Under the pieces are notes generated by a model. That model ran no database searches. It was not told where the DNA came from and saw only the letters and a program-made list of their open reading frames with translations. Shown piece after piece: positions 1-59,873 of a stretch of 60,715 nucleotides of DNA. The stretch lies in IMG/VR virus record IMGVR_UViG_3300045988_118650, one strand, 5' to 3'. The DNA is from a virus. How positions within the stretch are numbered: position 1 is the stretch's first letter; each line of letters starts with the position of its first letter. The translations under genes and the position numbers were made by a program.

Positions 1-141
1 TAAAAAGTCATGGCTTTCCAGCAGCTCGTCGTACACGCGGTTGATGTTGGCAATGGCGTGGACGCACTTGCCGTTGGGGTAGTCATCGTGCGTATGGCAG
101 TATGTTTCGTAGTCCTTGATGGTGCCAAGGATTTCATCAAA
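1..141. repeat. Terminal overlap, identical to 60575..60715
   Basis: Read directly: taaaaagtcatggctttccagc...ggatttcatcaaa occurs verbatim at both window ends. Confidence 0.95.
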
Positions 142-456
142 GTGTTCTTTGGTGTGGCGTCGGTCATGGAGCAGTTCATCGTTAAATCTTAGGATCTGCG
201 TTCTCCAAAGGCTGGCGGTCTGGGCGTCGTCCTTCTTGATATGCTCGTTCAGTTTCTGCCGCGTTTCGTTCTGGCATTCCTGCATGGTGTCCAGACGGGT
301 TGTGACGTCGGCGTTCATGCGGCTGCCCAAAAACTTCATAATGGCCGACCACGGGTTGATCTTGATAGGCGCGATCTCGACAAGGGACAGCAGGATGATG
401 ACAGCAGGCGTGACCATGACAGGCCCCCACGCTTCCCAGATGGCTTTCAGGCTCAT
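1..456 (-). CDS. Membrane-anchored lysis-module protein, 151 aa (N-terminal TM helix); stop codon lies across the junction at 60572..60574
   Basis: Own translation; absent from the ORF track because the stop is cut off by the window edge. ATG at 454-456 follows GGAGGTG. Sequence runs MSLKAIWEAWGPVMVTPAVIILLSLVEIAPI...NRVYDELLESHDFL. It sits directly upstream of the endolysin once the genome is circularised. Confidence 0.65.
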   Translation of the reverse strand, partial: MSLKAIWEAWGPVMVTPAVIILLSLVEIAPIKINPWSAIMKFLGSRMNADVTTRLDTMQECQNETRQKLNEHIKKDDAQTASLWRTQILRFNDELLHDRRHTKEHFDEILGTIKDYETYCHTHDDYPNGKCVHAIANINRVYDELLESHDFL

Positions 457-635
457 TTCAGTTCACCTCCCATCTGTTCGGATTTTGGCCGCAGGTCTGC
501 GCCACAGCCGCGCATACAGCAGTCCACCATCAGCACGCCGAATTCTGCGCGTTCTGTGGTCGTGTCCTCCCCTGCTTCTTCCAGCTTGTCCAGCAGGCTT
601 TCGCAGAGGTCAGGCCAGCTTTTGTGCTCTTGCAT
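453..635 (-). CDS. Hypothetical small protein (60 aa)
   Basis: ORF-track ORF. Its TGA overlaps the ATG of the next gene (ATGA). It overlaps the 3' end of the RT gene by 26 nt. No recognisable motif. Confidence 0.35.
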   Translation of the reverse strand: MQEHKSWPDLCESLLDKLEEAGEDTTTERAEFGVLMVDCCMRGCGADLRPKSEQMGGELK

Positions 636-1776
636 TGTGGTTTTCCTTCCAGATTCCGGCGTCGGGCTGTATGAGCTTTCCGTTCTTCTTCATGGTGTCA
701 AAGTAGATCAGGTTCAGGCGGCCGCGCAGGCTGGCGCTGTCGGTGTGGTCGATCAGGCCGTTTATGCTGGCTGTGCGGCGGTCAAAGTCCTGTTTGCTCA
801 TCTGCCCGGTGGCGTACAGTTCAGTGATCTTTCGGACTTCCCGCTTCAGGCGTCCCGTGGTGGACTTGCGGAGCTTCATGTGGGTGGCCCAGATGCGGAC
901 GCCCACAAACTCAATGCCCTGCCGGACGGGTCGGATGCAGGTCTTGTCGTTCAGATCGAGGTGTAATTCATCGTTCAAGAATGCTTCAATTTGGGCTTTC
1001 CAGCTGTGCAGGGTCTCTTTGTCCTTTGCCAGTATGATTACATCGTCCATGTATCGGATGTAGTAGTGGATGCCAAGGACGTGCTTTGCATACTGGTCAA
1101 GCTCGTTGAGGTATATGTTCGCAAAAAGCTGACTTGTAAGGTTGCCAATTGGCATACCGACGTCATAGAGCCAGTCCCCCGGCGGGGTGTCCTGCGGAGC
1201 CTTGCCGCGTGGCAGGCCAAACGCTTGTGCCCTGCTGTTGATGACCGTTTCCAAAAAGGCCATCAGCTGCGGGTCTTTGATGCGCTTTGACAGGATCTTG
1301 AGCAGCTTCTCATGGTTGACGCGGTAGAAAAATTTCGAGATGTCCAGCTTCAGGTAATACCAGTCGCCCGGCTTGCGGCTGACCTGCCGCACCCAGTATT
1401 GGAGCCTTTCGGCTGCCCGGTGGCTGCCCTTGCCTTTCCTGCAGGCGTAGCTGTCCTCAATGAACAGCTTGTCGTAGATGGGGTTCAGGTACTGGTACAA
1501 GCTCCATTGGACGATCCGGTCAGAATAGCCAAGTGCCATTACAAGCCGCTTTTTGGGAACATATACCCACAGCTTGCGGTACGGGCCAAGGATGTACGTC
1601 CCGCCCAGCATTTGCGCCTGAATTGCAAAAATGTTCCGTTCAAATTGTGCGGTAAAGGCCAGCACTTCGGCCCTGTACCGCTTTCCTTTGCGGGCATTGT
1701 GGTCGGCGTCGCAGAGATATTCAAACTCCGTGATGACCTCCCAAGCATTGTTGATCGTATTTATTTTTCGTGCCAT
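610..1776 (-). CDS. DGR reverse transcriptase
   Basis: RT motifs LDISKFFYRVNH, IGNLTSQLFANIYLNELD (the DGR-typical [I/L]GxxxSQ) and YIRYMDDVII (YMDD). The likely ATG is at 1774-1776; the track ORF extends to a TTG at 1824. Confidence 0.93.
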   Translation of the reverse strand: MARKINTINNAWEVITEFEYLCDADHNARKGKRYRAEVLAFTAQFERNIFAIQAQMLGGTYILGPYRKLWVYVPKKRLVMALGYSDRIVQWSLYQYLNPIYDKLFIEDSYACRKGKGSHRAAERLQYWVRQVSRKPGDWYYLKLDISKFFYRVNHEKLLKILSKRIKDPQLMAFLETVINSRAQAFGLPRGKAPQDTPPGDWLYDVGMPIGNLTSQLFANIYLNELDQYAKHVLGIHYYIRYMDDVIILAKDKETLHSWKAQIEAFLNDELHLDLNDKTCIRPVRQGIEFVGVRIWATHMKLRKSTTGRLKREVRKITELYATGQMSKQDFDRRTASINGLIDHTDSASLRGRLNLIYFDTMKKNGKLIQPDAGIWKENHNARAQKLA

Positions 1777-1950
1777 TGATTCACCGTCGCTGCGCGTGAC
1801 GTTCCCGCCTTCGCAGCAATACAAAATTCTTCCGGGTTGTCTGCCCGGAACGGTAAATAAGCTCCTTTAGACCCACACACCGACCGCAGCCCGTAGACTG
1901 CGGCCCTCATATCCGATGTGGTGTCACCGCACATAAAAGTGATAAGGTGT

Positions 1951-2068
1951 AAAGCGCAACGGCCCCCGATGTTCCAGTTCGTATCCGCGCGGGAATTGTT
2001 GAGGTTCAAGTTGAACACGCCAGCGTTGCTGCCATTGTTCCAGTTGCCGCCCCGATTCGGGCACCGCT
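1951..2068 (-). repeat. DGR template repeat (TR)
   Basis: 118 bp aligning without gaps to 2646..2763 with 10 mismatches. Every mismatch is a T on the plus strand, which is an A on the coding/minus strand of the TR. The TR carries 11 AAY codons. Confidence 0.92.
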
Positions 2069-2104
2069 ATATCTAGCCTATCCCCGTATATGAAAAGCGG
2101 CAGG

Positions 2105-2533
2105 TTATTTCAGCGTCTTTAGATAGCCGCCAAGCAACTTGCCGATTTCATCGTTGTATTTCGCCCAGACTGCGTATTGGTGCATATTGAGCGGTGGCGG
2201 GTATTTGCCCCCGTGTAACTTTTTGTTCGCCGCCAGCCGCACAAAGCCGCGCAATGCGTCGAGCTTGTCGTCCAGATTGTTTGCCGTGGTTTTCCTCATG
2301 TGCCGGTTGTCGATCTGGATAGAGAGTTCATAGAGGTCTGTCATAAGCTCTTTGAGCTTGTCAGCCAAGGCCCGGTCTTTTCGCGGGAATTGCGTTACAG
2401 GCTCCCAAGCATAGAGTATCATTTCCTCGATTCTCTCCCGCAGATGGAACGGCTCATATTCTTTACCATCGCATTCTTCGGGCTGCTCCTGCTGGGGCGG
2501 CACTTCGGTTTTTAGCACAGTCAACACCTCCAA
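2105..2533 (-). CDS. avd: DGR accessory variability determinant (Avd-like four-helix-bundle protein)
   Basis: About 140 aa, basic and helical (..WEPVTQFPRKDRALADKLKELMTDLYELSIQ..LDALRGFVRLAANKK..), located between target and TR. The start is ambiguous: TTG at 2533, or GTG at 2518 which lies 8 nt after GGAGG. Confidence 0.8.
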   Translation of the reverse strand: MEVLTVLKTEVPPQQEQPEECDGKEYEPFHLRERIEEMILYAWEPVTQFPRKDRALADKLKELMTDLYELSIQIDNRHMRKTTANNLDDKLDALRGFVRLAANKKLHGGKYPPPLNMHQYAVWAKYNDEIGKLLGGYLKTLK

Positions 2534-2589
2534 ATAAAAGTCAGCGCGGCGGCCCTCTGGCCCACCGCGCCTTTGGGTTATTTGCTTTT

Positions 2590-2611
2590 GGCCCGCGCTC
2601 CCGCGCAGGCC
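2590..2611 (-). promoter_or_regulatory. GC-rich hairpin downstream of VR (9-bp stem, GGGA loop)
   Basis: Minus strand reads GGCCTGCGC-GGGA-GCGCGGGCC, starting 9 nt after the target stop codon. Confidence 0.55.
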
Positions 2612-2620
2612 GTCAGCTTA

Positions 2621-3727
2621 TCAGGCTTCAGCGGGCAGCTCAACAAAAGCGCAACGGCCCCCGATGCTCCAGTTCGTATCCGCGCGGGAATTGCTGAGGC
2701 TCAAGTAGAACACGCCAGCGTAGCTGCCATTGCCCCAGCTGCCGCCCCGAAACGGGCACCGCTCCTCCGCGCCGTTGTTGAACCAGAAATAATCATTGCC
2801 GTAGGTAGCATCGATGCCGTCGCCGGTCAGAGCGGTGTCCGGCATGAGAGCCAGAGACATCAGCAGCAGCTTTGCGGCGTCGCTCACGCCGGAACCTGCG
2901 GTGATGTCCTTGAACAAGCAGCCGCGACCCTCGTCCTTCTGGTCTGCAATGGTGGTATCCCATACCGCCTTGCCGCTCACGACGTTCAGCTTGATGCTGC
3001 CCTCGGTGGTGCCGTTGCCGTCCGGGGTGATCAGGCTGCCGTCGCTGGCCTTGATCGCTTTCCATGCGCTGCCGGATGCTGCATAGGAGACGGTGTTATC
3101 TGCGGAGTTGTTGTCGAGGATGACCTGCAGCTCGCCCTTATACAGGCGCAGACCCAGCACCCACTCCCAGACGTTGCCGCTCATGTCAAACGCGCCGTTC
3201 ATCTTGCCGTTGTGGCTGTAAGTGACGGGGCCGGTGCCGGTGAGGATGCGGGCGGTCTTGCCGCTATCCTGAACGCCGGGTGCCGGGATGCCGACATAAT
3301 CGGTCTCGCTGGCATCCTTGCCATAGTTATTGTTGCCGCGCGGCTCACAGCCGTGCTTGTGGCACCAGAGGGCGACGGCGGCCCACTCTGCATTGGTCAC
3401 TTCGTGCCAGCCCTTGCCCTTTGCCACGCAGGATGCAGCGAAAGAATCATAAGTGCGGCTGGTTGCAGGATCCTCGGCGGGCAGGCTGTAAGAGCGGCCA
3501 CCATAGACAGTGCTCTGGTACTTGCCCAGCCAGAAACCAGCGATCTGCTTGCCGTTGACGCGGAAAGCGGGGTGAATATCGGTGCTCTTGGTGGAGAGGA
3601 CGTCACAGAGCCGGAAAGCCGGAATCCAGACGTGCAGGGACGGCTGATCGACGTCGTCCATCATCAGCTTGTTATCAGGGAAAGCGCACTTGACCGCGAA
3701 AGCGGCAGCGTCGAAATTGTTTGCCAT
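2621..3727 (-). CDS. DGR variable target protein, FGE-sulfatase/C-type-lectin-fold receptor-binding (tail fibre) protein
   Basis: Motifs GKYQS, NAEWAAVALWCHKHG and GNVWEWV. The C-terminus GGSWGNGSYAGVFYLSLSNSRADTNWSIGGRCAF is encoded by the VR. It is the last gene of the tail-fibre block. Confidence 0.9.
   Translation of the reverse strand: MANNFDAAAFAVKCAFPDNKLMMDDVDQPSLHVWIPAFRLCDVLSTKSTDIHPAFRVNGKQIAGFWLGKYQSTVYGGRSYSLPAEDPATSRTYDSFAASCVAKGKGWHEVTNAEWAAVALWCHKHGCEPRGNNNYGKDASETDYVGIPAPGVQDSGKTARILTGTGPVTYSHNGKMNGAFDMSGNVWEWVLGLRLYKGELQVILDNNSADNTVSYAASGSAWKAIKASDGSLITPDGNGTTEGSIKLNVVSGKAVWDTTIADQKDEGRGCLFKDITAGSGVSDAAKLLLMSLALMPDTALTGDGIDATYGNDYFWFNNGAEERCPFRGGSWGNGSYAGVFYLSLSNSRADTNWSIGGRCAFVELPAEA
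2646..2763 (-). repeat. DGR variable repeat (VR)
   Basis: Counterpart of the TR. TR codons AAT/AAC appear in the VR as TTT, AGC, GGC, TAC, TAC, AGC, AGC, AGC. The VR ends 25 nt before the stop codon. Confidence 0.92.
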
Positions 3728-3741
3728 ATCTCATATCCTCC

Positions 3742-4161
3742 TTACAGGATGCTTTCAAAATCTTCGATGCTCCACAGGCGCAGGATGACCTTTTCGGTGT
3801 CCAGCGGCAGGGTGCGGCGCTCGATGTGGGTGATGGGCGGGGTCTGCTCGCCCTGTGCTGCATCGGTCTGCGGGTCGGTTTCCTCGACGGCGGCGGTCAT
3901 GGCGTCGCTCTGGGCGGGGCCTTCGACCTCGACTTCCTCGTACTCATAGCCGGGGATCTCGACCTGCGCGACGTAGTACAGGCCGTTATCACTGTCAACG
4001 GCAAGGTTGCCCTGTGCGTTGGCGGTGATGGTTGCGGTTACGGTGTCCTCCTTCTGGTACTTTGCAAGGTTCATGACAAGGGTGCTGTCGGCAAAGTCCA
4101 GCTTGGTGCCGCGCAGCTCATACTCGATCTTGCGGCCAGTGTTCAGTTCTTCGATCTTCAT
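3742..4161 (-). CDS. Hypothetical tail-fibre-associated protein
   Basis: 139-aa ORF tightly packed between the fibre gene and the DGR target. Acidic C-terminal half. Confidence 0.6.
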   Translation of the reverse strand: MKIEELNTGRKIEYELRGTKLDFADSTLVMNLAKYQKEDTVTATITANAQGNLAVDSDNGLYYVAQVEIPGYEYEEVEVEGPAQSDAMTAAVEETDPQTDAAQGEQTPPITHIERRTLPLDTEKVILRLWSIEDFESIL

Positions 4162-4751
4162 TACTTGGTACCTCCCGTTACTTTGATGATAACGACAACG
4201 GATTTTGCGCTGCCGTCGTGCCGGAGCTTAAAGCCGTTGGCCAGCTTGTCCTTGACGATGATGTCGCCCAGCGTACCGCCCGTGTAGCTCTTGACGTAGA
4301 CGTCCACGTCGTAGTTGGTGTTCTTGCGGGTGGTGGAGAGCGCCACAGCGGTGTCCTTGATGCAGAACGGCCATGCGTCCGTGCCAGCGGTCAGCGTGAC
4401 CTGCTTGACCTCGGCTGCGGTGTCCTTTTCCAGCGCGGTCAGGCGGGTGTCCTGCTGGGTGTTCAGGGTCTTGATGGCAGAGATATCGGCTTCATGGTTG
4501 TCACCACGATTCTCCATCCTGTCCAGACGGCGGCCATGCCACTGGATGATGGTCTGTGCGATCTTGACCGCGATGTTGGTATCATGCAGGCCAACTTCCA
4601 TGCGGTTGAAGTTGGCGGCGCTCATGTTGGTGCCCTGCTGGACGACCTTGCCTGCGCGGGTCATGGTGTAGGTACCATCGTCGTTTTTGGTCAGGTTGTA
4701 GACGTTGGACGGGGTGACAGCGTGATCTTTCCAGAGTAAAAAGTTAAACAT
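4161..4751 (-). CDS. Putative tail fibre protein
   Basis: N-terminal GTNMSAANFNRMEVGL motif typical of phage fibre N-termini, then a coiled-coil-like segment. Position follows the baseplate genes. Confidence 0.6.
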   Translation of the reverse strand: MFNFLLWKDHAVTPSNVYNLTKNDDGTYTMTRAGKVVQQGTNMSAANFNRMEVGLHDTNIAVKIAQTIIQWHGRRLDRMENRGDNHEADISAIKTLNTQQDTRLTALEKDTAAEVKQVTLTAGTDAWPFCIKDTAVALSTTRKNTNYDVDVYVKSYTGGTLGDIIVKDKLANGFKLRHDGSAKSVVVIIKVTGGTK

Positions 4752-4771
4752 AGATTTTCACCTCCTTTCGG

Positions 4772-5077
4772 TTAGACCAGCTCATACAGAGGAAATTCCC
4801 AGAGGGTAATAACGCCCTGTGTGCTGTTTTTGATAAGGTTCTCGCTGATCTGGCCAGCGATTTCGCCGTCGGAATCGACGATGCGAACAGCGGTGATGGT
4901 GAGGGTCGCGCTATCCTGCGTCTGGCAGACGACTTTCAGGGCGTTGCCCTCGATGGCTTTGGACGTGATCATGGCGTCATACCAGACGCCCCCGGCGTAA
5001 TACTGGATTTTAGCAACACGCCGCAGCCAGTTGTTGCGGATTTTGTTCAGAAAGTTTTCATTCCAGAATAAAGCCAT
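4772..5077 (-). CDS. Hypothetical tail/baseplate-associated protein
   Basis: 101-aa ORF with an RBS, lying in the tail module. Confidence 0.6.
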   Translation of the reverse strand: MALFWNENFLNKIRNNWLRRVAKIQYYAGGVWYDAMITSKAIEGNALKVVCQTQDSATLTITAVRIVDSDGEIAGQISENLIKNSTQGVITLWEFPLYELV

Positions 5078-5091
5078 ATAGAGTTACCTCC

Positions 5092-6039
5092 TTAACTTTG
5101 AGATGCGAAATCCTGCCCACAAAGCGGGTAAGTTTCCGCGCATTCGGTGACGGTGTAGCCGACGCCCGTAACGACGCGGGCGGCATTGCCCAGCATGGCA
5201 GGCTCCGGGGTCTGCCCGGTGGGCATATCGGCTTCTGCTGTGATGGGGTATTCGGTAAGGTGGGGCGTGTGGGCGGTCTGCGTGACCGTCGCCCGGTGGA
5301 TGTAGGCGGCAAGGGATGCGGGTTCCGGGTTCGTGCCTGTGGGGTTGTCCACGTCGGCGGCCTGTTTGTAGTCCGTGATGACGGGCAGACGGTTCGTTTC
5401 CGTGACGGTCTCGGCGATGTAGTATGCGCCTTTGGTCGAGACGTCCGGCTTTGTGCCTGTGAGGTCGTAATCAAAAACGTAGTTGGTTTTTCTGGTCTTG
5501 ACGACGACGGCCCGTTTGTAGGTGACAATGGGCGTATAGGCAATGTGCGCCGGAATCTTGCGGGAGAGCAGCTCCAGAATATCGCTCATGTAGAGGGTGA
5601 CTTCATCGCCGCGCTCGAAATTGATGTACAGCATATTGTTGCCTGCTGCATCGAACGGCTCAAATTTGACCTCAACGCCTGCGTTGGTGTAGGCGTTTAT
5701 CATCTCTTTCAGCAGGGTGGCAGAGACCCGGCCAAAGCCTGCAAAAAAGGATTTGATAAGGCGGCGGCGCTCGTCCAGCGTTCTGGTCTTGTCGAGGTTG
5801 ATACTCAAAAAGATCTCCATCTGCCGGACTGCGGCTTCGTCCATGAAGTCGATAAAGGCGTTATTATAGACCTGCTCAATCGCATCTTGGGTACCGTCCA
5901 GCAGCTTGCCGTTGGCTTTGAGGATGGCGTTCATCTCCCGGACTTCGCGGTAGTAGCGCGGGTAGTAGGAGATCAGCTCTTCATAGCAGTCGGCAAAATC
6001 TCGGCTGTAAAACTGCTTGCGGTCGATGGTGCGTTTCAT
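5092..6039 (-). CDS. XkdU/YmfQ-like (DUF2313) baseplate/tail protein
   Basis: N-terminus FYSRDFADCYEELISYYPRYYREVREMNAILKANGKLLD resembles DUF2313. It follows the baseplate J gene. Confidence 0.75.
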   Translation of the reverse strand: MKRTIDRKQFYSRDFADCYEELISYYPRYYREVREMNAILKANGKLLDGTQDAIEQVYNNAFIDFMDEAAVRQMEIFLSINLDKTRTLDERRRLIKSFFAGFGRVSATLLKEMINAYTNAGVEVKFEPFDAAGNNMLYINFERGDEVTLYMSDILELLSRKIPAHIAYTPIVTYKRAVVVKTRKTNYVFDYDLTGTKPDVSTKGAYYIAETVTETNRLPVITDYKQAADVDNPTGTNPEPASLAAYIHRATVTQTAHTPHLTEYPITAEADMPTGQTPEPAMLGNAARVVTGVGYTVTECAETYPLCGQDFASQS

Positions 6040-7151
6040 GTGGTCAGCTTCACCTCCCCGGTCACGGGGATGTAATCAGCCCCCGGCTTGATGTTCTCGG
6101 TGCCGCCGTTGATGGTCAGGTTCTTGTAGTCCACCACGCTGTCCATTTCGATGATGATAGCGCCGATGCGGGCGGCGCGGATGACCACATCTTCGGCGGC
6201 TGCCGTTGTCAAGACGGTCTCTTTGAGGTAGGCGTCAATGGCAGTCCTCGCCTGCTCCTGCACCTCCTGCGGGGTGAATCCGCTGGCAAGGTCGGCTTGG
6301 AAAGCGACGTCGATTTTTGTTTCGCGGGCAGAAACGGCGGTGAAGTGTGCGCCAAGGTTTGCGACGCCCTCGCCCAGACCGTCGCCGACGGTGTAGGTGT
6401 AGCCGTCCACGTTGGCGGTGTAGCCTTTGGTGGCGGGGTCGATGTACTTCTGGACTTCTGCCACCTTCTCGCTGGAGCAGGCGCGGCCAGATGAATCAAT
6501 CAGCACCGCCTTGACCGTGTTCGGGCCGTTCCACAGCGGATAGATGCGGGCATGACCGATGCCGTCAATGGATTCGCACCACGTTTTGTAATGCTGCTTG
6601 TTTCCGTTCTCGGCAGGGCCAGCTATTTTTTCCTGCACACGGGTACGCAGGCTCTCGTCGCTTTCGCGGTCAGTGCCGTTTTCGTAGATCTCGCCGAATT
6701 TGGAATTCTTCATACCGTCGATCTCGTTCACCGGGATGGCGGCGGTGCCCTCGTAGATGGTGTTGCCAGCTTCGCCGGGGACTTCCGCTTCGAGGTAGTA
6801 CTCCCCTTCCAGCGTGTTGTAGTGCAGGACAAAATACATACCGTTGTTGTAGTATCTCGCCCCGGTTTCCGGCGTTGTGCCCTCGTAGGTAAAGCGGTAC
6901 TTCGCCGGGGTCGCTGCATGGCGGGTCATGCCGTACTCGTTGGCCTTGTCGTCCAGATCGTCCCCGGTAGCGGTGGAGATGGAAACAAGCTTGCGGGCAA
7001 TGTCGATATCCGCGTAGAGCTTGGCGATTTTCAGGCAGGTGCCCGAAACGGCGTCGTAGAATATAGACCCCTGCCGGGTGTCGATTCCGGCAGCGTCCGC
7101 ATCGCTCAAAACCTCCTGCATGAGGTTTTCAAAGGTTCTGTCTTCAAACAA
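6036..7151 (-). CDS. Baseplate J-like protein (XkdT-like)
   Basis: 371 aa. The pattern MFEDRTFENLMQEVL..GIDTRQGSIFYDA is typical of the baseplate J family. Synteny matches PBSX. Confidence 0.85.
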   Translation of the reverse strand: MFEDRTFENLMQEVLSDADAAGIDTRQGSIFYDAVSGTCLKIAKLYADIDIARKLVSISTATGDDLDDKANEYGMTRHAATPAKYRFTYEGTTPETGARYYNNGMYFVLHYNTLEGEYYLEAEVPGEAGNTIYEGTAAIPVNEIDGMKNSKFGEIYENGTDRESDESLRTRVQEKIAGPAENGNKQHYKTWCESIDGIGHARIYPLWNGPNTVKAVLIDSSGRACSSEKVAEVQKYIDPATKGYTANVDGYTYTVGDGLGEGVANLGAHFTAVSARETKIDVAFQADLASGFTPQEVQEQARTAIDAYLKETVLTTAAAEDVVIRAARIGAIIIEMDSVVDYKNLTINGGTENIKPGADYIPVTGEVKLTT

Positions 7152-7556
7152 TTAGATCACCTCCTCCACTTCAATTTCTCCGTAGATGGTGTCAGCGGTA
7201 AATTCGATGTGCGCCTGATCTTTGTCAAACGTAATGGTGAAGTCGTGACATTCGAGGATGCGGCTATCCGGGGCCAGTGCATCTTTGACAAAGCCCTCGA
7301 TGACGGACTCTGCATATTCGCGGCTGGCGTCCTTTGCGATTACGGCGTCCTCGATCTCGCTGCCGTACTGGTTATCATAGATCAGGCACTTGAAACGCGG
7401 GGTAATGATGGCTTTTCGGATGGCCTGCTGTACGGCTTCGAGGTTGTCCACAAAGCCGACGATCCTCCCCGCGTCAAGGTCAAGGCGGTATGTGCGGGAC
7501 GGCTTTTCCTGCGCGTCCTGCACCTCCGCTATGCCAATAGGGATGTATACGGCCAT
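7152..7556 (-). CDS. XkdS-like (DUF2634) baseplate protein
   Basis: PSRTYRLDLDAGRIVGFVDNLEAVQQAIRKAIITPRF pattern; synteny. Confidence 0.75.
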   Translation of the reverse strand: MAVYIPIGIAEVQDAQEKPSRTYRLDLDAGRIVGFVDNLEAVQQAIRKAIITPRFKCLIYDNQYGSEIEDAVIAKDASREYAESVIEGFVKDALAPDSRILECHDFTITFDKDQAHIEFTADTIYGEIEVEEVI

Positions 7557-7557
7557 A

Positions 7558-8010
7558 TCAAATATCCTTTCCTGCTACCTGCCCGGCGACGCGGTCAAGG
7601 ACATAATAGACCTTGCCGTTGTTGAGCGACAGCAGATAGACGATATCATTCTTTTGCAGATGGTTGTAGACCTTCAGGGTCATCTTATAGGCGTTGAGCT
7701 TTTCAACGTAGTGCTTGTGCTTGACGTTGGTCGTCGGACCGCCCCGGCTGTCGTTGTGGATGTGGCCGCCGTCCATTTTGGTATAGGTTTCGTCGCGCAG
7801 CTCGCCCTTGTCGCCCATGGTATAGTCCGCGTGGGTTGTGTAGTCCGTGAGGTGCCACGGCACAACAAGCTGGTTGCCGGAGATAATGAGCTTGCTGTCG
7901 TTGACGGCGGTGATCTCCAGCGGGTCATCCTTGGTTACGGTACCCTGCAGGATGGTGGAGCCGACCGGAATCATCCCCTGAAAGAGCTGCTTCAAGCTGG
8001 TTTCGTTCAT
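7558..8010 (-). CDS. XkdR-like (DUF2577) baseplate protein
   Basis: 150 aa; synteny between the XkdQ-like and XkdS-like genes. Confidence 0.7.
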   Translation of the reverse strand: MNETSLKQLFQGMIPVGSTILQGTVTKDDPLEITAVNDSKLIISGNQLVVPWHLTDYTTHADYTMGDKGELRDETYTKMDGGHIHNDSRGGPTTNVKHKHYVEKLNAYKMTLKVYNHLQKNDIVYLLSLNNGKVYYVLDRVAGQVAGKDI

Positions 8011-8012
8011 GG

Positions 8013-8999
8013 TCAGCCCCCTTTCTTGACGTCTGCCGCCGTTGTGAGGGTGACAGACATTGTGTGTAGATTATCCTCAAAATAGTGGTCGTCGTCGTCC
8101 ACATAGTAGGCGCGGTTGATGTTCAGGTGCGGGATGCGCACCAGAATGGCCTTGCCTGATATGACGTCGGCGTCGCCCAGTGTGTCGAGGTCGATGTTTT
8201 CTTCCGGGTCGTCCAGCGTGTCAAGGACGCTGGAAACAAGGTCTTTGACCTGCGGCGTGGTGAGGGATTCATCCGGCTGCTGGATCTCCTGAAAGATGCC
8301 GATCTTCTTTTCAAGGGCAGCGTTTGACTTTTCGGCCAGAGTGGTGCCCTCTTTTGAGATCATCTTGACGCGGGTCTTGATGTTCTCAATGCTCTTGGTG
8401 TAGGAATATCCGTACAGGTTGGCGTCGCCGTCCACGACGTAGGAAATGACCTGATCTTTGCGTTGCAGCAGGGAGAGCTTGCCGCCGTCGCTGCTGACGT
8501 AGTGCCGGGTGCCCGTTGCCTTGTAGTCAAGGCTCAGGGCGTCCAGTACGGCATCCTGCCCGGTGGTCTTGCTCTTGGTCAGCTCCGGGATTTGGTAGGT
8601 GCATTTTGCGACCGTTCCAGTCGGGATGCCAAATCGGGAGCAGACGTCGGCAAATACCTGATCTGCGGTCTTGTTTTTGTAAACAAACGTGTCCTTGTTG
8701 TTGGCAAGGTAGATGCCGTTATCGTAGGCGGTGAATTTCAGACTTTTCTTGTTGCCCTGATTCTGGTTCAGCAGGATGCCCCGAAAGCGCTCCTTGCCGT
8801 CAACGAGAAAAATACATTGGTTCCCATCTTCCACGTTGATGCCGCTGCGGGCGTGCTTGTAGCCGTCGTCGTCGATCATGGTCACGGTCAGGGTGCGGGC
8901 AGAACTGCCCTTGCGTCCTCTCCAATGGACAGACTTGACAAGGGCGGTCATGTCGGTGGTCTTTTTGTTCTGAACGATCAGAAGCTGGATTTTTGCCAT
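8013..8999 (-). CDS. XkdQ/YqbQ-like tail (late control D-like) protein
   Basis: MAKIQLLIVQNKK..VHWRGRKGSSARTLTVTMIDDD. The ATG at 8997-8999 follows GGGGAGGG. Confidence 0.75.
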   Translation of the reverse strand: MAKIQLLIVQNKKTTDMTALVKSVHWRGRKGSSARTLTVTMIDDDGYKHARSGINVEDGNQCIFLVDGKERFRGILLNQNQGNKKSLKFTAYDNGIYLANNKDTFVYKNKTADQVFADVCSRFGIPTGTVAKCTYQIPELTKSKTTGQDAVLDALSLDYKATGTRHYVSSDGGKLSLLQRKDQVISYVVDGDANLYGYSYTKSIENIKTRVKMISKEGTTLAEKSNAALEKKIGIFQEIQQPDESLTTPQVKDLVSSVLDTLDDPEENIDLDTLGDADVISGKAILVRIPHLNINRAYYVDDDDHYFEDNLHTMSVTLTTAADVKKGG

Positions 9000-9013
9000 G
9001 CGCCGCCCTCCCC

Positions 9014-9670
9014 TCACGGAATCTTCAAAATCTGTCCGGGGTAGATCAGATTCGGGTTGCTGCCGATGATGGATTTGTTCGCGGAATAGATGTCGGTGTA
9101 TTTGGCACCGTTGCCGTATAGGCTCTTTGCAATGTTGTACAGGCAGTCGCCCTTCTTGACCGTGTAGGTCTTTGGGGTGGATGCGCTGTCAACGCGGGTC
9201 GTGACGTCCTGCACCGTTGCGATCAGGGCAGAGCTGACAGAAACGGTTTTCAATGAAACCTCCTGATACTCTTTCAGGGTGATGTCGTAGGAGTAGGTGC
9301 CCACGTCGCCGCCGCTTTCGGAGTAGTTGAAGCTCTCGATGGTGCAGTACAGATTGATGAACATACCCGTGCAAATAAAATGGATGGGTACGCGGCTCTT
9401 TTTCCAGCGCTCGATCATGCGGATGTACAAAATCGGCGGCACGGCAATGAAGGATTTCATGCCGGGGAAAGAGTGCGCCGGGAAGAAGCTGGAAAAGCTA
9501 AATTGCAAAGCCGGGCGGCTCTGCATGATCGTGACCTCTCCAAGCCCGGTCAGGTCAACGCTCTGGTTGTTGGAGCCGTTTTTTACGGAGAATTTTTCAG
9601 GCAGCACGGGGAGCCTGATTTTTTCCTTTTCGGCGTTCCATGTAAACCAGATCTGGTAGTTAATACTCAT
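9014..9670 (-). CDS. XkdP-like tail protein with C-terminal LysM domain
   Basis: C-terminus YTVKKGDCLYNIAKSLYGNGAKYTDIYSANKSIIGSNPNLIYPGQILKIP is a LysM domain. The ATG at 9668-9670 overlaps the end of the tape measure gene. Confidence 0.85.
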   Translation of the reverse strand: MSINYQIWFTWNAEKEKIRLPVLPEKFSVKNGSNNQSVDLTGLGEVTIMQSRPALQFSFSSFFPAHSFPGMKSFIAVPPILYIRMIERWKKSRVPIHFICTGMFINLYCTIESFNYSESGGDVGTYSYDITLKEYQEVSLKTVSVSSALIATVQDVTTRVDSASTPKTYTVKKGDCLYNIAKSLYGNGAKYTDIYSANKSIIGSNPNLIYPGQILKIP

Positions 9671-12600
9671 ACGAAAGCTGGCCCTCCTCAAAAATCTCCT
9701 GCTTGATAATGCCCATCAGAACAGGCTTCATGTTGTCGGTCAGCAGTTCCAGCACGTCGCTTTCGGTCATGCCGCCGCCAGAGCCGCCAGAGACCGTCAC
9801 AGCGCCCTTTCCTACCAGTTCTAGGATAACTCTTTTCACCGTTTCGGCGGGCGTGTTCTGGGTGTTCTGCGGAGCCGTTGCGACGGGCAGGACGTTGAGG
9901 GGCGCAGGCTCGACGGGTTCCGGGGTTTCAGACGCGGGCACGGCGGTGGCCGTCGCCTGCTGCTCGTCGGCTGCGACGGGTGCGGTGGGCTGCTGGGTCA
10001 GAACATCTTCCAGCTCCGTGAGGTCATAGGTCTCGGTGGCCCCCTGCGGGGTGGCAGACAGGCCCATGTAGGCCGCTTCAATTTCCGGCAGGTCAGAGTT
10101 CTTGCCGGAGAGGATGTCAGCGACCTTGCCCAGCGTGGACGCCAAGAGAGATTCTCCCGGCGCAGGTTCCGGGGCATCGATGGAGATACCAGCGAGAGCC
10201 TGCAGGAATTGGCTGAACCTCTTTTCGGTCCCGGCCTGCTCCTGCGTGATGTGGCTTTCGACGCTGTTGTCCGTGGTGTAGCTTTCAGCGACGTCGTGGC
10301 TGTCCACGGTCTGTGCGCTGTTGTCGATGCTGGTTACATCGTGGCTATCATTCAGGACGCTGGCGTCGGTGAGGTCATGGCTATCCGTGACCGCATGGCT
10401 ATCGGTGATTGCGTACTCATTCGCCACATCATGACTGTCCACAACAGAGTGGTCATCTGTGACGGTGTTGTAGGTGGTTTCGGATGCGGGCGCTGCGGCG
10501 GCCGTTGCCGGGGCGTCATCGATGCCGTTCAGGGCATCAATGATCTTCTCGGTCTCTTCGGTGGGGAAAACGGTGCTCCCCTGCTTTCCAACGATCAGCT
10601 CCGGGCCTTCCTCGCCAGCGATGAACACATCTTCGGCGTCGGTCGTGCCGCCAGCATGGCCGGGCACGGTTGGCGTCGGGGTGGTCGGCGTGTAGGTGGC
10701 GCTGTTTTGCAAGGCGGCGGCCACGGATGCGGCCACGTCCTTTGCAGCAGCTACGGCGTCCTTCTTGCCGTTCTTTATGCCCTGAATGTAGCCGTCAAGG
10801 GTCTTTTCGGCTTGCGCCTTTGCGTTAAGGGACATATCCATGCCCTCGACGGTATCAAGCATTTTCCGTTCAAACTCGTCGAGCTGCTTTTCGTAGCCCG
10901 TCACCCAGTCTGCGGTGGCCTGTGCAGCTTCGTCCTGCTTGGCGGTGACGTCGGCCAAGGTGTTTGCCAGCTTGGACACAGCGTCCTTGTTGCCGCTGTT
11001 GATGGCCTTGACCATGCTTGCGGCCAGACCTGCGGCCTGCTCGCTGCCGTCCTGCACATAGGACATCAGGGCCTTGTAGTTGTCCTCGGTGATGCCAAGA
11101 TCCTGATAAGATGTGCCTTTCAGGGTCTCGATGTTTGCGGTATAGGTGTTCCAGTAGTTGAGCTGGGAATCCAGCGCGGCCTGTGCGGCTGCGACGCTGG
11201 CGTTCAGGTAGTCTTCGGACTTGGTGGAAGCTTCATCAAATAGCCCAAACTGGCCCTCAAAGCTGTCCTTTGCGGCCTTGTAGGCTGCATCGTAGGCTTC
11301 GCAGAGCTTTTCCACATCTGCCCGGACGTCGTTATAGGCTTGCGACACCGCTTCCTGCTGGGAAACGATCTCGCTGCCTGCGGCTTTGGCGTCATCGGCC
11401 TGCTGGGTGTAATACTTGTCGATGACTTCCAGACGGTCAGATGTGTCGTCGAGGGCTTTTTGCAGCTCGCCCTGTTTGTCCTGATACTTTTGCAGCTCCT
11501 CGTTGGCTGCGTTGAGGTTTGCGGCCTGTTCAGACCACTGTGCGGAGATGGTGGCCATGCCGGTGGGGTCTTGCGCATACAGGTCGGTGATGTAGTCATC
11601 ATAGACCTTCTGCGCTTCGTTCACGCGCTCCTGCGCGGCGGCTATGGCGTCATTGTTTTCCTTGATGGTTTCCTGCTCGGTGGCCTGCTGTTTCAACAGG
11701 TCAACGTATTCCTGATACTTCTCCTTCTGGAGCTCCTGCTCGGCCTGCTGCTTTGCCATTTCCTTGACGCTGGCAATGGCCTTGCTCTGGTTTTCAGTCA
11801 GATCCTCATAGGTGAGGCTCAGGCCGTCAATGCTGCCGTTCAGCTCGTTGATGATGGTTTCCATCTGGGCTTGCTTTTCAGCGCTGTTCCCGGTGGAGCT
11901 TGCCAGCGCATCGAGCTGGGCGACCAGTGCAAGGTTTTCGACCTCGCTGTTGTGGATGGCCTGCGTGTTGCTGCCAAAGCTGTCGATCAGGTCGTTGTGC
12001 TTGCTGATTACGTTGTCAAGGTTGGATACATACTCGTCCACGGACTGCCCGTTGTTTTCCAGAGAATCGGAAAGCTCATCGATGCGGTACTTCAGGGTGG
12101 ATGCCTGATCGGACGTGCTGCCGTAGGTGCGGCAGGCTTTGTCATACTGTTCTTTGAGGGATTCCAGCTCCTTTGTCTGGGCGGCGGTGGTGGCCGTCAT
12201 GGACATGGCTTCGTCGTAGGTGTCCTCATACTTGTTGCCCAGCATGGTGACAGCAGCGGTAACGGCTGTCACGGCGGCTGCGGCCGCCAGCAGGCCGGGG
12301 GCAAACGGCGTTATCGTGGCAAGGAACGATTTCATGGTCGTGCTTGCAAAAAGGGTGGCGGCAGAGACGCCAGCGACGCCGACGGCAACGGCTCCCAGAC
12401 CTGCGCCGACGGCGGTCAGAGCCTTTACCACGTTGGGGTGTTCGGAGAGGAAATCGCCCACGTTGCCCCAGAGTTCGGCCAGTTCAGCAGATGCGTCATG
12501 GATGGTCGGCTCTAAGGTCTGGGTAAAGGCAACGGTCATCTTGTTGTTGGCCTTTTCCCATTTCTCGGACAGGCTTTCGCCAGCCGCCGCGGTACGTTCC

Positions 12601-19427: not shown

Positions 19428-20489
19428 TCACTTAATGTTGGTGATGATGGCGGCCGCGTCCAGCTCCTCGATGATGGGGTCAAAGTCAAAGTGAACGACA
19501 TAGAAACGCTTGTCCTTCATGATGGCTTCCTTGCCCTCGATGGTCTTGCGAATCTTCATGCCGTAGGTGTTGACGACGATCAGGTTCTTCGGGTCGGTCA
19601 GGATGATCTTATCGTCCGGCAGGGACGGGCACTCGACGACGGGCACCTTTGCGGGGCTGTTGTAGATGGATTCGGGGACAGCGCCGCCCTTGTCGATGAT
19701 CTGGTTCAGCAGGTGCAGCTCCCATTCCTGTGCGCGGTGGGGGCTCATGAGCCAGCGTAACCGACCGTTATTGTACTTGTTCGGCATTGCGTGCAGGGAG
19801 TTGTAGAACATATCCAGCGTCATGGAGTTCTGGGCGGTGGCGTCAACGACGTGTGCGCCCTCCTTGAGCTGCTTAATCCAGCCGTCATTGACCTTCAGGA
19901 AGTCAGCGTCGCCAGTGGTGCCAAGGGCAACGGCGTCAGTGCCAGTCCATGCGCCAGCGGTGTGCTTTGCGGTAAACTCGTAGACCTTGTTGTCCTTGAT
20001 GGCCAGATCGCCGATGTTGTAGGTCTCGGATTCGCTGAAAGCCTTTGCCTTTGCGAACTTCTCGTCGCCGTTCAGATAGAGATCCAGCGCATCAATGCCG
20101 GTCTGGGTGGTCATCAGGTTGGTGATGATGTTCTCCAGATTCTGACCCTCGATGTTCTCGCGCAGGGTCTCCTCGGTGATTTCCCAAGGCAGGCGCACGG
20201 GGGTGCAGGCGTACTTGATGGAGCTGGTGTTGACACCTGCGCGGTAGCCGTCGTCGGTGTCCTCGGTCTTCTCACGCAGCAGACGGGATGCAATGCCGAT
20301 CTTGTCGATCTCGCCGGAGCGGGCGGTGCGCATCTCATGACGTACCAGACCGCCAAGGGTGGTCGCTTCAAAGGTCTGCTGGATAAACTTGCGGGCCTGC
20401 TCGCTGGACAGAATGCCAGCGCCCGCGTTGGGGGTAAAGTTGCCGGTATTGATGGCCTTGCGGATGATATCTTCGATGGAAAGTGCCAT
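19428..20489 (-). CDS. Major capsid protein (XkdG-like)
   Basis: MALSIEDIIRKAINTGNF... ATG at 20487-20489 follows AAGGAGG. Position follows the protease-scaffold gene. Confidence 0.88.
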   Translation of the reverse strand: MALSIEDIIRKAINTGNFTPNAGAGILSSEQARKFIQQTFEATTLGGLVRHEMRTARSGEIDKIGIASRLLREKTEDTDDGYRAGVNTSSIKYACTPVRLPWEITEETLRENIEGQNLENIITNLMTTQTGIDALDLYLNGDEKFAKAKAFSESETYNIGDLAIKDNKVYEFTAKHTAGAWTGTDAVALGTTGDADFLKVNDGWIKQLKEGAHVVDATAQNSMTLDMFYNSLHAMPNKYNNGRLRWLMSPHRAQEWELHLLNQIIDKGGAVPESIYNSPAKVPVVECPSLPDDKIILTDPKNLIVVNTYGMKIRKTIEGKEAIMKDKRFYVVHFDFDPIIEELDAAAIITNIK

Positions 20490-20509
20490 TTCGGTGTCCT
20501 CCTTCTTTA

Positions 20510-22012
20510 TCACAGGATGCCGTGCAGGTAGCAATCCTCCTGCGCGGCAGACTTCTGGACGGTGCCGGATGCGCCGTTCAGGTTGGTGGGGTTGGCGCGG
20601 CTGCTCAGCACTGCGCTTACGGACTTTGCGACAATGCCGTCGATCAGCTCGGACAGGTCAGCTTTGGTGAGCTGCTGCTCCTGCTTCTGTTCCGGCTCCT
20701 GCTGGCCCAGTGCCTTCTTGATGGCTGCATCAACGGCGTTCTGGACGAAATCAGGGGTGATTTCCTCGCCCTCTGCCTTTTCGACAGTGGCGGGGGCCTG
20801 CTCGCTCTGCTGCTGGCCCAGCGCCTTTGCTACGGCGTCCTGCACCAGCTTCTCAGCTTCGCTCTTGGTCATGGTTTTGCCCTCCTTGTTTTTGGTGGTC
20901 TCGGTGGATGTATCGTCGCCCGGCTTTTTGTTGTCGGGGTCGTCGGTTTTGTTAGTGGACGCGGCAGAATCGTTATCGGCAGCGGTCTTTTTGTTATCGT
21001 CCGTCGCCTGATTCTTGCCCTCGTCCTTGCTGCTGCCCTTGTCGTCCTTCTGGCCGTCGGTGGTATCTTCCTCGGTGCCAGTTTCGCCGCCGGGCTTGTC
21101 CTTGTCGGGGTCTGCGTCAACAGATGCAAGGAACGTGCCCAGACTGTCATACAGGCCCTGCAGGGCTTCGCGGTTCTTTGCGCTCAGGCTGCGGCCAGCC
21201 TTTTCGATGCGGCCCAGCTCCGGGGTGGGCTTGCATTCGAACAGGGATTTGGTCAACGGCTTTTCGCTGCTTGCATCGGCCAGCAGGTTTGTGATGATCG
21301 TGCCGAACTCTTCCAGCGCGGCCTTGATGGTGTCCTCGTCGGTCTGGTAGGTGTAAGTCCCGGTATAGCCGTTGTAGGTGTACAGGGCACTGCGCAGAGC
21401 GTCAAAGGCGTTCCAAAAGCTGCTGCTCGTGTTCGACTGCTTGAAGTTGTCAGTGACCGCGCCCTTTTCGACACGGCCCTGTGCTTTGGTTATAGATGCG
21501 CTGCTCAAATCAGTGTCCTCCTGTGCAAAGACGCCCAGACCACCCATCGAAAGCCCGGTGATTTCACCTTTTTCGATGGAGTTCCACAGGTCGTCATCCT
21601 TGATTTCGACGGTCATCAGCCATGTGCCCTCCTTGACGGTTTCGCCGCCGATGTCGCAGTCGGATTTTGCAATCCAGCTCTCAACGACGGCGGTTCCCTC
21701 GGCTGACACAAAGTTGTGCTGCAAATCGACCTTGTTCCCGTTCTTGGCAAACCAATAGGCCGCCTTTGCGATTTCGTCAGCGGTCATATAGTTGCCGTGA
21801 GCGTCCTCGACCAAAGGTTCGTATACGACGCCCGTCACAAAATGGGAATCGCTGTCGGCCTTGATGATTTTGCCGTAGGTGGTAAAGGTCGCCTTGCCGT
21901 CCTCGTTCTTGACAATGAGAAAAGGCCGCCTGTTGGCTGCTTTATCGACAAGAGACACAAAAGAGATCCGTGCATCTGTAATTTCTTTTGCCTTGGTTAC
22001 AGGTTTTGCCAT
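20510..22012 (-). CDS. XkdF-like prohead protease domain fused to a scaffold-like C-terminal region
   Basis: MAKPVTKAKEITDARISFVSLVDKAANRRPFLIVK..VVYEPLVEDAHGNYMTADEI is the XkdF pattern. It is followed by a D/K/T-rich low-complexity linker and a helical tail. ATG at 22010-22012. Confidence 0.8.
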   Translation of the reverse strand: MAKPVTKAKEITDARISFVSLVDKAANRRPFLIVKNEDGKATFTTYGKIIKADSDSHFVTGVVYEPLVEDAHGNYMTADEIAKAAYWFAKNGNKVDLQHNFVSAEGTAVVESWIAKSDCDIGGETVKEGTWLMTVEIKDDDLWNSIEKGEITGLSMGGLGVFAQEDTDLSSASITKAQGRVEKGAVTDNFKQSNTSSSFWNAFDALRSALYTYNGYTGTYTYQTDEDTIKAALEEFGTIITNLLADASSEKPLTKSLFECKPTPELGRIEKAGRSLSAKNREALQGLYDSLGTFLASVDADPDKDKPGGETGTEEDTTDGQKDDKGSSKDEGKNQATDDNKKTAADNDSAASTNKTDDPDNKKPGDDTSTETTKNKEGKTMTKSEAEKLVQDAVAKALGQQQSEQAPATVEKAEGEEITPDFVQNAVDAAIKKALGQQEPEQKQEQQLTKADLSELIDGIVAKSVSAVLSSRANPTNLNGASGTVQKSAAQEDCYLHGIL

Positions 22013-59564: not shown

Positions 59565-59566
59565 GA

Positions 59567-59872: not shown

Positions 59873-59873
59873 C

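Follow-up and report, generated by a model that had tools for sequence, protein, structure and literature searches.

The window, a stretch of 60,715 nucleotides (IMG/VR record IMGVR_UViG_3300045988_118650), very probably carries an intact BPP-1-type diversity-generating retroelement (DGR), a reverse-transcriptase (RT) cassette with the order target-avd-TR-RT, in a temperate gut myovirus, operating by the mechanism that we propose below. The carrier is a complete, circularly assembled temperate myovirus genome of 60.6 kb from the gut, and its host is most likely Faecalibacterium or a related member of the Oscillospiraceae. The original prediction, made by a model from the letters alone, was of a complete DGR in this order; all the parts were found, and each checkable element of that reading holds. 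All features given with coordinates below lie on the minus strand, and positions are those of the window. It had also called the class a known one, and indeed this cassette family has already been published from Faecalibacterium phages (FP_Lagaffe; "Faecalibacterium prophages rich in DGRs"). The cassette is a good textbook example of a DGR, not a discovery.

The template repeat (TR, 1951 to 2068; 118 nt with 27 adenines) and the variable repeat (VR, 2646 to 2763; codons 323 to 360 of the 368 codons of the target gene) had been said to align over 118 bp without gaps, with exactly 10 differences, all at adenines. Pairwise alignment gives precisely this: the similarity breaks off abruptly at both repeat ends, and at 10 of the 10 mismatches the plus-strand base of the TR is T, hence A on the coding (minus) strand. 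Ten random mismatches would all hit the 27 adenines among the 118 positions with P = 8.7e-8. Counted in the reading frame of the target gene (2621 to 3727), 8 of the 11 AAY codons of the TR are altered in the VR, as predicted (AAT to TTT, and AAC to AGC, GGC, TAC, TAC, AGC, AGC, and AGC). Ser (AGC, four cases) and Tyr (TAC, two cases) predominate among the AAC changes, a spectrum that fits the bias of bRT at AAC codons reported in PMC12875486. All 27 TR adenines stand at codon position 1 or 2, and a stop codon cannot be reached by mutating any of them. At their 3' ends, both repeats are GC-rich and free of adenine (1951 to 1969 in the TR; 2646 to 2664 in the VR, where the segment is IMH-like), and no second VR was found within the window. 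In 129 related TR/VR pairs, 1,654 of 1,710 mismatches fall at TR adenines, while the non-adenine TR substitutions of the relatives are mirrored in their own VRs in 61 of 61 cases. Read from these alignments, the flow of information is adenine-only and directional, from TR to VR.

Two near-identical relatives provide a view of this flow over a short time span. The IMG/VR contig IMGVR_UViG_3300045988_091609 (L002, of L001/L002) and the ENA contig ERZ1027066 NODE-1742 (L157) are 99.1% and 98.6% identical to the window over the cassette and have the same TR, and the three genomes hold three different VR alleles. The VR of L002 differs from that of the window at 12 positions and the VR of L157 at 10, all at TR adenines, and pairwise differences among the three number 10 to 12, again confined to TR-adenine sites. 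In total, one or more alleles carry a change at 21 of 26 adenine sites, versus 0 of 88 non-adenine sites, and the divergence between the window and L002 is 11% in the VR versus approximately 0.6% in the flanks. Identical TRs with three VR alleles in genomes that are about 99% identical bear out the suggestion that the element was recently active, and recent TR-to-VR mutagenic homing is supported by these sequence comparisons, which take the place of the read mapping suggested as a check.

The RT gene (610 to 1776) codes for 388 amino acids from the ATG at 1776; the ORF is open further upstream, to a TTG at 1824, and alignments of the relatives with the ATG form begin at its residue 1. The protein matches Pfam RVT_1 (80 bits) and phrog_1423 (E 1.6e-128), and its tblastn matches are the DGR RTs of BPP-1, VHML, BalMu-1, and crAss-like phages. 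Both motifs named in the prediction, YMDD (1042 to 1053) and IGNLTSQ (1129 to 1149), are found, and the first catalytic Asp lies within LKLDISKFF (1327 to 1353). IGNLTSQ aligns with I181 to Q187 of bRT and YMDD with residues 213 to 216, and the catalytic and template-contact residues D138, YMDD 213 to 216, and I181/G182/Q187 (bRT numbering) are kept. The best relative in the PDB is bRT itself, the DGR enzyme of a Bordetella phage (8ub7; E 3.4e-47), versus 9.1e-22 for the best group II intron RT in the PDB and 5e-18 for "retron-type" entries, and by this comparison the enzyme groups with DGR RTs, away from those of retrons and group II introns.

The Avd-like protein noticed between the target and the TR proved to be a member of Pfam PF22296 bAvd (61.1 bits; cut-off, 40). 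Its ORF, avd (accessory variability determinant; 2105 to 2533), likely starts at the GTG at 2518, after GGAGGTG at 2525 to 2531. It also matches phrog_3206, "Avd protein of DGR," and reaches 64 bits, under the cut-off of 80, with the NCBIfam equivalog DivGenRetAVD. With a pI of 6.4 to 6.9 it is near-neutral, which is atypical; Avd proteins usually have a basic pI (9.5 +/- 0.7). The arrangement avd-TR-RT is that of DGR architecture B1. The gap between target and avd folds, as DNA, into a GC hairpin (2544 to 2570) followed by a T-run (2532 to 2543), which looks terminator-like, and this sequence (2532 to 2570) is kept in close relatives.

Between TR and RT, the spacer (Sp) of the DGR RNA (1777 to 1950) is predicted to be structured. 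RNAalifold on 36 relatives proposes 36 pairs, 24 of them with compensatory double changes, arranged in four stems: P1 (1916 to 1925 paired with 1870 to 1878), P2 (1896 to 1904 with 1883 to 1891, around a UACG loop at 1892 to 1895), P3 (1844 to 1850 with 1830 to 1836, followed by an A/U-rich run at 1818 to 1829), and P4 (1812 to 1817 with 1789 to 1794, enclosing a GGAA-loop hairpin at 1798 to 1809). No Rfam family matches the Sp. A further Sp strand (1850 to 1863) pairs over a long range with the segment ACGGGGATAGGCT just upstream of the TR (2075 to 2087), bracketing the TR. This duplex covaries (median of 12 bp for a cassette's own pair versus 7 bp for cross-paired controls) and has at least 10 bp in 59 of 83 family members. 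BPP-1 has an avd:Sp "cPRT stop" duplex, an element reported from this phage and 207 further DGRs (bioRxiv 10.1101/2023.10.23.563531), and ACGGGGATAGGCT:Sp is its counterpart. By sequence alone, neither the priming adenosine nor the template:primer duplex was located.

On the recipient side, a hairpin or cruciform of the form GGCCTGCGC-GGGA-GCGCGGGCC (2590 to 2611) lies 34 nt after the VR, with a 9-bp stem and a 4-nt loop that fits GRNA. It matches the target-recognition element of Guo et al. 2011 (PMC3240598), which has a GC stem of 7 to 10 bp and a GRNA loop and is located 4 to 34 bp from the VR. Among unique VR flanks, 61 of 94 have a stem of at least 8 bp with a 4-nt loop, versus 53 of 1,880 shuffles; the family hairpins show the loops GATA, GGTA, GGGA, GGCA, GACA, and GAAA, and their stems covary. 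The GRNA hairpin is present after the VR, the TR being without one, and the distinction between IMH and IMH* sits in the flank, outside the repeat. The known cis elements (GRNA hairpin, structured Sp RNA, and TR-bracketing duplex) are all present and covary across about 130 related cassettes.

The space between VR and hairpin holds a periodic array, CTG-N4-CTG-N4-CTG-N5-CTG (2614 to 2638), which overlaps the target stop codon at 2621 to 2623. Among unique VR flanks, 53 of 87 contain this array, while none of 17,400 shuffles and none of 86 TR flanks do; in 2.75 Mb, 83 of its 86 occurrences are within 40 nt after a detected VR. It is found as well in Dulem virus 37, BalMu-1, and Lagaffe, and in a reduced form in VHML. 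The array is a VR-flank-specific detail, possibly undescribed before, and we tentatively consider, at rather less than even confidence, that it is a new cis element by which DGRs of this Firmicutes-phage lineage recognise the target site. For instance, it may be bound by the RT-Avd ribonucleoprotein or by a host factor that singles out the VR, and not the TR, as the recipient. If this were true, a conserved, VR-specific, and easily mutated motif would offer a direct handle on cDNA integration, as this step is still not understood.

The target gene (2621 to 3727) codes for a TaqVP-like variable protein of 368 amino acids. The FGE/C-type-lectin signatures attributed to it are confirmed by full-length homology to TaqVP (PDB 5VF4; E 6e-55, covering residues 26 to 362 of the target), while the Pfam FGE-sulfatase match stays below threshold (20.8 bits; cut-off, 23.3). 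The VR aligns with VR residues 341 to 374 of TaqVP, and both proteins share the scaffold residues R-GG-W-G..G..L..W..G.R; the target also matches phrog_2889 (E 1.5e-111). By this homology, we can assign the target to the FGE-type C-type-lectin fold. The homology to TaqVP fixes the fold and not the function, because the biological ligand of TaqVP is itself unknown. No match to Mtd was found by phmmer (E up to 0.1), and no fibre or trimerisation domain is recognisable in the target, which looks like the single-domain monomeric TaqVP type, unlike an Mtd-like fibre with a trimerising shaft.

The cassette was expected to be attached to the tail module, and this is the case. Directly upstream of the target lie the distal tail and baseplate genes (3742 to 7556; PHROGs annotation), namely, three small genes without known function (3742 to 4161, 4161 to 4751, and 4772 to 5077), a P2 I-like tail protein gene (5092 to 6039), a baseplate J-like gene (6036 to 7151), and a gpW-like gene (7152 to 7556). 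The lysis genes lie on the other side. FP_Lagaffe likewise has its cassette flanked by the baseplate and the lysis module, and the order of the distal tail and baseplate genes is common to FP_Lagaffe, BalMu-1, and Dulem virus 37. Judging only from gene position, we take the target to be a tail-tip adhesin of the virion, and its variation would alter receptor use or host range.

In the mechanism that we propose, the avd-TR-Sp(-RT) transcript would fold into a structured RNA in which the TR is bracketed by the duplex between the segment just upstream of it and the spacer, and several of the spacer stem-loops would bind the RT-Avd complex. The RT would then cis-prime from a spacer nucleotide and make a cDNA copy of the TR, with misincorporation opposite template adenines. 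This cDNA would replace the VR at the 3' end of the target gene, guided by the GC-rich, adenine-free end of the VR and by the flank with its CTG array and GRNA-loop hairpin, the latter missing at the TR. Up to 15 codons (11 of them AAY) would be re-randomised in the ligand-binding face of a protein with a C-type-lectin fold, which would allow approximately 2e15 possible proteins with zero possible stop codons. Cis-priming and Avd dependence, as well as the route of cDNA integration, are carried over by analogy from work on BPP-1.

It could be argued that TR and VR are an ordinary duplication kept alike by recombination or gene conversion and that the RT has nothing to do with them, being the enzyme of a retron or group II intron, and the best NCBIfam match of the RT is in fact a group II intron RT/maturase model. 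That match reaches 135 bits, far under its cut-off of 300, whereas bRT leads the solved relatives by 25 orders of magnitude in E-value, and no intron RNA or retron msr/msd matches in Rfam. The adenine-only mismatches, in the window and in the 129 related pairs, together with the three VR alleles and the closeness of the RT to bRT, refute this explanation, to which we assign a negligible probability. A recently inactivated relic, in which the VR differences reflect past activity of a copy that no longer homes, is improbable too, if less extremely so. One assembly alone gives no measurement of activity, and the related prophages Lagaffe_CP, CP11, Mushu, and Lelie showed no read-level VR variation under laboratory conditions (PMC11792537). 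Against this, all ORFs are whole, with the catalytic motifs in place, every known cis element is present, and the VRs have turned over beside an unchanged TR at a flanking divergence of just 1 to 1.4%.

The alternative that deserves more weight, although we still consider it unlikely, concerns the target of an otherwise real DGR, which might be an adhesin, virion-decorating or secreted, for something else such as mucus glycans or other surfaces, or might be non-structural; in that case, host range would not depend on VR variation. The full-length homology to a single-domain, monomeric TaqVP, unlike the trimeric Mtd, points in this direction, as does the lack of any tail-fibre domain or match in the target and in the three small proteins encoded upstream of it. 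In other DGRs of Faecalibacterium phages, the targets are Hoc-like Ig proteins that are thought to bind mucus (PMC11792537). However, the gene shares its strand with the baseplate J, I-like, and small genes and stands right behind them, only 14 nt away, and the order is kept in Lagaffe, BalMu-1, Dulem virus 37, and VHML, where the upstream gene carries a tail-fibre annotation. A homologue of the target in Pseudoalteromonas phages is annotated "antireceptor." We keep the tail-tip adhesin as the preferred reading.

The prototype for comparison is the DGR of Bordetella phage BPP-1 (mtd-avd-TR-brt), which has the same gene order, an Avd, and a Brt that is 35% identical to the RT described here. 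Both systems place the VR at the 3' end of a target with a CLec fold, mutagenise adenines only, have a GRNA hairpin after the VR, and pair a TR-upstream segment with the spacer, followed by a stem-loop and an A-rich run. They differ in the target, which here has neither a detectable sequence match to Mtd nor its trimerising N-terminal domains, and in the hairpin, which is 34 nt from the VR here and a few nucleotides from it in BPP-1; the gap contains the CTG array, which BPP-1 does not have. Moreover, TR/VR identity reaches the very end of the repeat here, without IMH/IMH* mismatches, the Avd is not basic, and the probable host is a Gram-positive gut anaerobe. TaqVP, from a Thermus aquaticus prophage (PDB 5VF4, PMC6328139), combines full-length homology to the target with the same cassette order in a different phage of another host phylum.

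FP_Lagaffe (Cornuault 2018, PMC5883640; also PMC11792537) has a local synteny identical to that of the window (baseplate J, I-like, three small ORFs, SUMF1/FGE-like target, Avd, TR, RT, two small ORFs, and lysis genes) and probably the same host genus. Its target homologues have been reported as similar to Mtd 1YU0 by HHpred (PMC11792537), and ATCTG repeats follow its VR. It differs from the window in having a second VR and target (PMC11792537), the window having a single one, and a post-VR hairpin loop of 7 nt instead of the 4-nt GRNA loop. A megablast search of window positions 1 to 12000 against 50,697 phage records gave no match at all, to FP_Lagaffe or any other, and the target is just 48% identical at the protein level, which places the phage outside the genus Lagaffevirus. 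The closest whole phage in GenBank is Dulem virus 37 (PP511443, from lemur faeces), with the same cassette order and with four ACTG repeats and a GATA hairpin after the VR. Its identity to the window is 53% for the terminase, 53% for the RT, and 50% for the target; as the similarity is at the protein level only, the two are different species and probably belong to different genera.

The template repeat (TR; 2068-1951) and the variable repeat (VR; 2763-2646) of this diversity-generating retroelement (DGR), both on the minus (coding) strand, form a 118-nt ungapped repeat whose likeness breaks off sharply at both borders. As the original prediction had it, they differ at 10 positions, and at all 10 the TR base on the coding strand is adenine; for 10 randomly placed mismatches, the probability of this outcome is 8.7e-8. 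In the frame of the 368-codon target ORF (3727-2621, minus strand), the TR contains 11 AAY codons, 8 of which are altered in the VR (N326F, N330S, N332G, N336Y, N341Y, N343S, N345S, and N354S), and these are exactly the codon changes that had been listed beforehand. All 27 TR adenines fall on codon position 1 or 2, with 15 mutable codons that allow about 2e15 protein variants and at none of which a stop can be reached. The outcomes at AAC codons in the VR (Ser four times, Tyr twice, and Gly once) fit the bias toward Ser and Tyr described for bRT, the reverse transcriptase (RT) of Bordetella phage BPP-1 (PMC12875486). A search of the 60.7-kb window that tolerated any base at TR adenines, plus as many as 25 mismatches elsewhere, gave no second VR, and no target paralogue was found in the window.

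The RT gene (610-1776, minus strand) opens with an ATG, and its product matches Pfam RVT_1 and phrog_1423 (E 1.6e-128). The top NCBIfam model is the group II intron RT/maturase, a label that we rejected because its 135 bits lie below the cut-off of 300 and bRT is far closer: the best solved relative is 8ub7 (E 3.4e-47), whereas the top-scoring group II intron RT reaches an E of 9.1e-22. We identify 8ub7 as bRT because the residue numbering (D138, I181, G182, Q187, D215, and D216) agrees with that published for the BPP-1 enzyme (bioRxiv 10.1101/2023.10.23.563531). The IGNLTSQ and YMDD motifs, from which a DGR-type RT had been predicted, do align with those residues, and a tblastn search against phage genomes retrieved the DGR RTs of Dulem virus 37, BalMu-1, VHML, BPP-1 (brt), and crAss-like phages.

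The expected Avd-like protein between target and TR is encoded at 2105-2533 (minus strand) and matches Pfam bAvd with 61 bits (cut-off, 40) as well as phrog_3206; its NCBIfam score is 64 bits, under the cut-off of 80. GTG 2518 is the likelier start, as the mechanical TTG start overlaps a GGAGGTG ribosome-binding site. The protein has a near-neutral pI (6.4 to 6.9), with a value of about 9.5 reported for DGR Avd proteins in a survey, and its N terminus carries an acidic stretch of about 25 residues ahead of the bAvd domain. The target, of 39 kDa, is a full-length homologue of PDB 5VF4 (E 6e-55). That entry is TaqVP, from the DGR of a Thermus aquaticus prophage (PMC6328139), a variable protein of the FGE-type C-type-lectin kind that is monomeric and has a single domain. 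The VR of TaqVP (residues 341 to 374) aligns with that of the window, and the target resembles this monomeric protein rather than the trimeric Mtd of BPP-1. This homology already fixes the predicted fold, in agreement with the FGE/C-type-lectin assignment made from the sequence. Both the observation and the interpretation in the original prediction are right; as for its remaining part, we infer from gene position alone that the target would be the receptor-binding tail tip and so would set host range. A 458-aa ORF lies antisense to the target (2573-3949, plus strand), and comparable long antisense ORFs lie opposite other genes; we regard them all as a side effect of GC-rich codon usage and not as genes.

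We identified 261 relatives of the RT in IMG/VR, and loci from IMG/VR and GTDB provided 129 TR/VR pairs of equal design, in which 1,654 of 1,710 mismatches are located at TR adenines. One locus, L002 (IMG/VR contig IMGVR_UViG_3300045988_091609), is 99.1% identical to the window across 6.8 kb and has an identical TR, but its VR differs by 11% versus 0.6 to 0.7% in the flanks. A third VR allele on the same TR is found in L157 (ENA metagenome contig ERZ1027066 NODE-1742; 98.6% identity). The three VRs show 10 to 12 pairwise differences, every one at a TR adenine, and 21 of 26 adenine sites are altered in at least one allele, compared with 0 of 88 other sites. This comparison, the comparative counterpart of read mapping, supports recent activity of the element, as had been claimed. 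Among distant relatives with a drifted TR, all 61 non-adenine TR substitutions are mirrored in the cognate VR, a signature of one-way transfer from TR to VR. The window has one VR; in L083, from an uncultured Faecalibacterium MAG, one TR serves two (1656-1764 and 3967-4083), with CTG repeats and a GATA-loop hairpin downstream of each.

The window VR is followed, 34 nt downstream, by a hairpin (GGCCTGCGC-GGGA-GCGCGGGCC; 2611-2590, minus strand). A stem of at least 8 bp with a 4-nt loop occurs at that place in 61 of 94 unique VR flanks and in 53 of 1,880 shuffles; throughout the family the loops are nearly all GRNA, and the stems covary. Guo et al. 2011 described this target-recognition element, a hairpin/cruciform with a GC stem of 7 to 10 bp and a GRNA loop, 4 to 34 bp from the VR (PMC3240598). 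Taken as a whole, the intergenic stretch from VR to avd folds no more stably than shuffles do (z = -1.55), and only individual hairpins within it carry meaning. Between target and avd, a GC hairpin longer than the post-VR one precedes a T-run (2532-2570, minus strand), an intrinsic-terminator-like arrangement kept in close relatives. Such a putative terminator would keep transcription of the target distinct from the avd-TR-RT transcript, or else attenuate it.

The VR and the GRNA hairpin are separated by a CTG-N4-CTG-N4-CTG-N5-CTG array (2638-2614, minus strand), which recurs in 53 of 87 unique VR flanks and is absent from all 17,400 shuffles and all 86 TR flanks. In 2.75 Mb of sequence, 83 of its 86 occurrences lie within 40 nt past a detected VR, and the remaining three sit where a locus is truncated at its start. 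The array is mostly non-coding, since the position of the stop codon varies; it is also found in a two-target relative, past its second VR, and in the loci L083, L151, L152, L155, and L156. Dulem virus 37, BalMu-1, and the Faecalibacterium phage FP_Lagaffe contain it, VHML has it in reduced form, as two copies, and BPP-1 and Pseudomonas phage Bise are without it; it is common to several Firmicutes-phage DGRs. Pairing of the array or VR flank with the spacer RNA was considered and rejected, as own-locus complementarity averages 6.6 nt versus 6.2 nt across loci, at positions that are inconsistent between loci. No mention of the array was found in the DGR literature searched, which is not proof of its being unreported, and it is the only lead here with some novelty.

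The 174-nt spacer from TR to RT (1777-1950, minus strand) has a conserved fold, with compensatory changes in 24 of 36 predicted pairs. Within it, a UACG tetraloop caps a 9-bp stem, an A-rich run comes after a stem-loop, and a 3' helix encloses a GNRA hairpin; Rfam (positions 1 to 5000, E up to 1) returned no family for this RNA or anything else. A long-range duplex brackets the TR, pairing 2087-2075, 6 nt upstream of it, with spacer positions 1863-1850 (minus strand), and covaries strongly (median of 12 bp for own pairs versus 7 bp when cross-paired). Its counterpart in BPP-1 is the "cPRT stop" duplex with stem-loop and adenosines, also predicted in 207 other DGRs (bioRxiv 10.1101/2023.10.23.563531). 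Complementarity of the TR 3' end to the spacer, sought as a template:primer duplex with its priming adenosine, gave only weak, wobble-rich candidates that do not covary.

Window bases 1-141 and 60575-60715 are identical, which indicates that the genome is 60,574 bp long and closed into a circle (or terminally redundant); a 152-aa ORF spans the junction (from 456 to 1 and on from 60574 to 60572). The tail sheath, tape measure, portal, terminase, XkdF-type protease, and serine recombinase encoded here identify it as a temperate myovirus. The large serine recombinase (38113-39837, plus strand), with Resolvase, Recombinase, and zinc-ribbon domains, itself implies a temperate lifestyle. The C-terminal part of an 834-aa protein (41810-44314, minus strand) is an N6/N4 DNA methylase domain. 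The putative major capsid protein (19428-20534, minus strand) has weak sub-threshold matches to a P2-family capsid model and a weak mid-protein CBM_5_12 carbohydrate-binding match that may be a decoration-like insertion. The DGR is located between distal baseplate genes (gpW-like, J-like, I-like, and three small genes) and the lysis module (holin, 59184-59768; endolysin, 59874-60545; minus strand), which lies past it across the junction, with two small conserved ORFs (phrog_37604 and phrog_37638) in between. This stretch covers 1-635 and 59184-60545 and has, going away from the DGR, the two small ORFs, then endolysin, then holin. PHROGs gave no recognisable function for the three small genes upstream of the target; the small proteins at 3742-4161 and 4161-4751 had no significant PDB match, and the latter did not match the VHML tail-fibre protein. 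Related RTs in the nearest cellular genomes, Faecalibacterium intestinale (75%), uncultured Faecalibacterium (73%), and Gemmiger (73%), point to Faecalibacterium or a related Oscillospiraceae as the probable host.

The window cassette is a DGR, in which each testable defining feature was found, and its anatomy and the comparative data support the standard model, in which the RT-Avd complex would bind the structured avd-TR-spacer RNA; the RT would cis-prime, copy the TR, and err opposite adenines; and the cDNA would take the place of the VR, marked by its flank and hairpin. For these biochemical steps we reason from BPP-1. As a DGR, the cassette brings no conceptual change, and its value is practical: a clean, complete circular genome with all known cis and trans components intact, and three natural VR alleles on one identical TR. 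By covariation, about 130 cassettes together define the structure of the spacer RNA and the VR-flank elements, and they could guide both the reconstitution of a Gram-positive gut-phage DGR and work on the VR-specific CTG array in retrohoming.

Since BPP-1, phages have been known to use DGRs to diversify C-type-lectin tail-module proteins. The cassette fits the avd-TR-RT architecture class with a CLec-type target of Wu et al. 2018, its family has already been described in Faecalibacterium phages (PMC5883640; PMC11792537), where DGR abundance is also published, and IMG/VR already contains a near-identical genome. Megablast of the first 12 kb gave no match among GenBank phages, so relatives were found by protein or pattern. 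FP_Lagaffe has the same gene order as the window and a target 48% identical, the cassette region is arranged alike in BalMu-1 and Dulem virus 37, and in both FP_Lagaffe and BalMu-1 the lysis module is placed as in the window.
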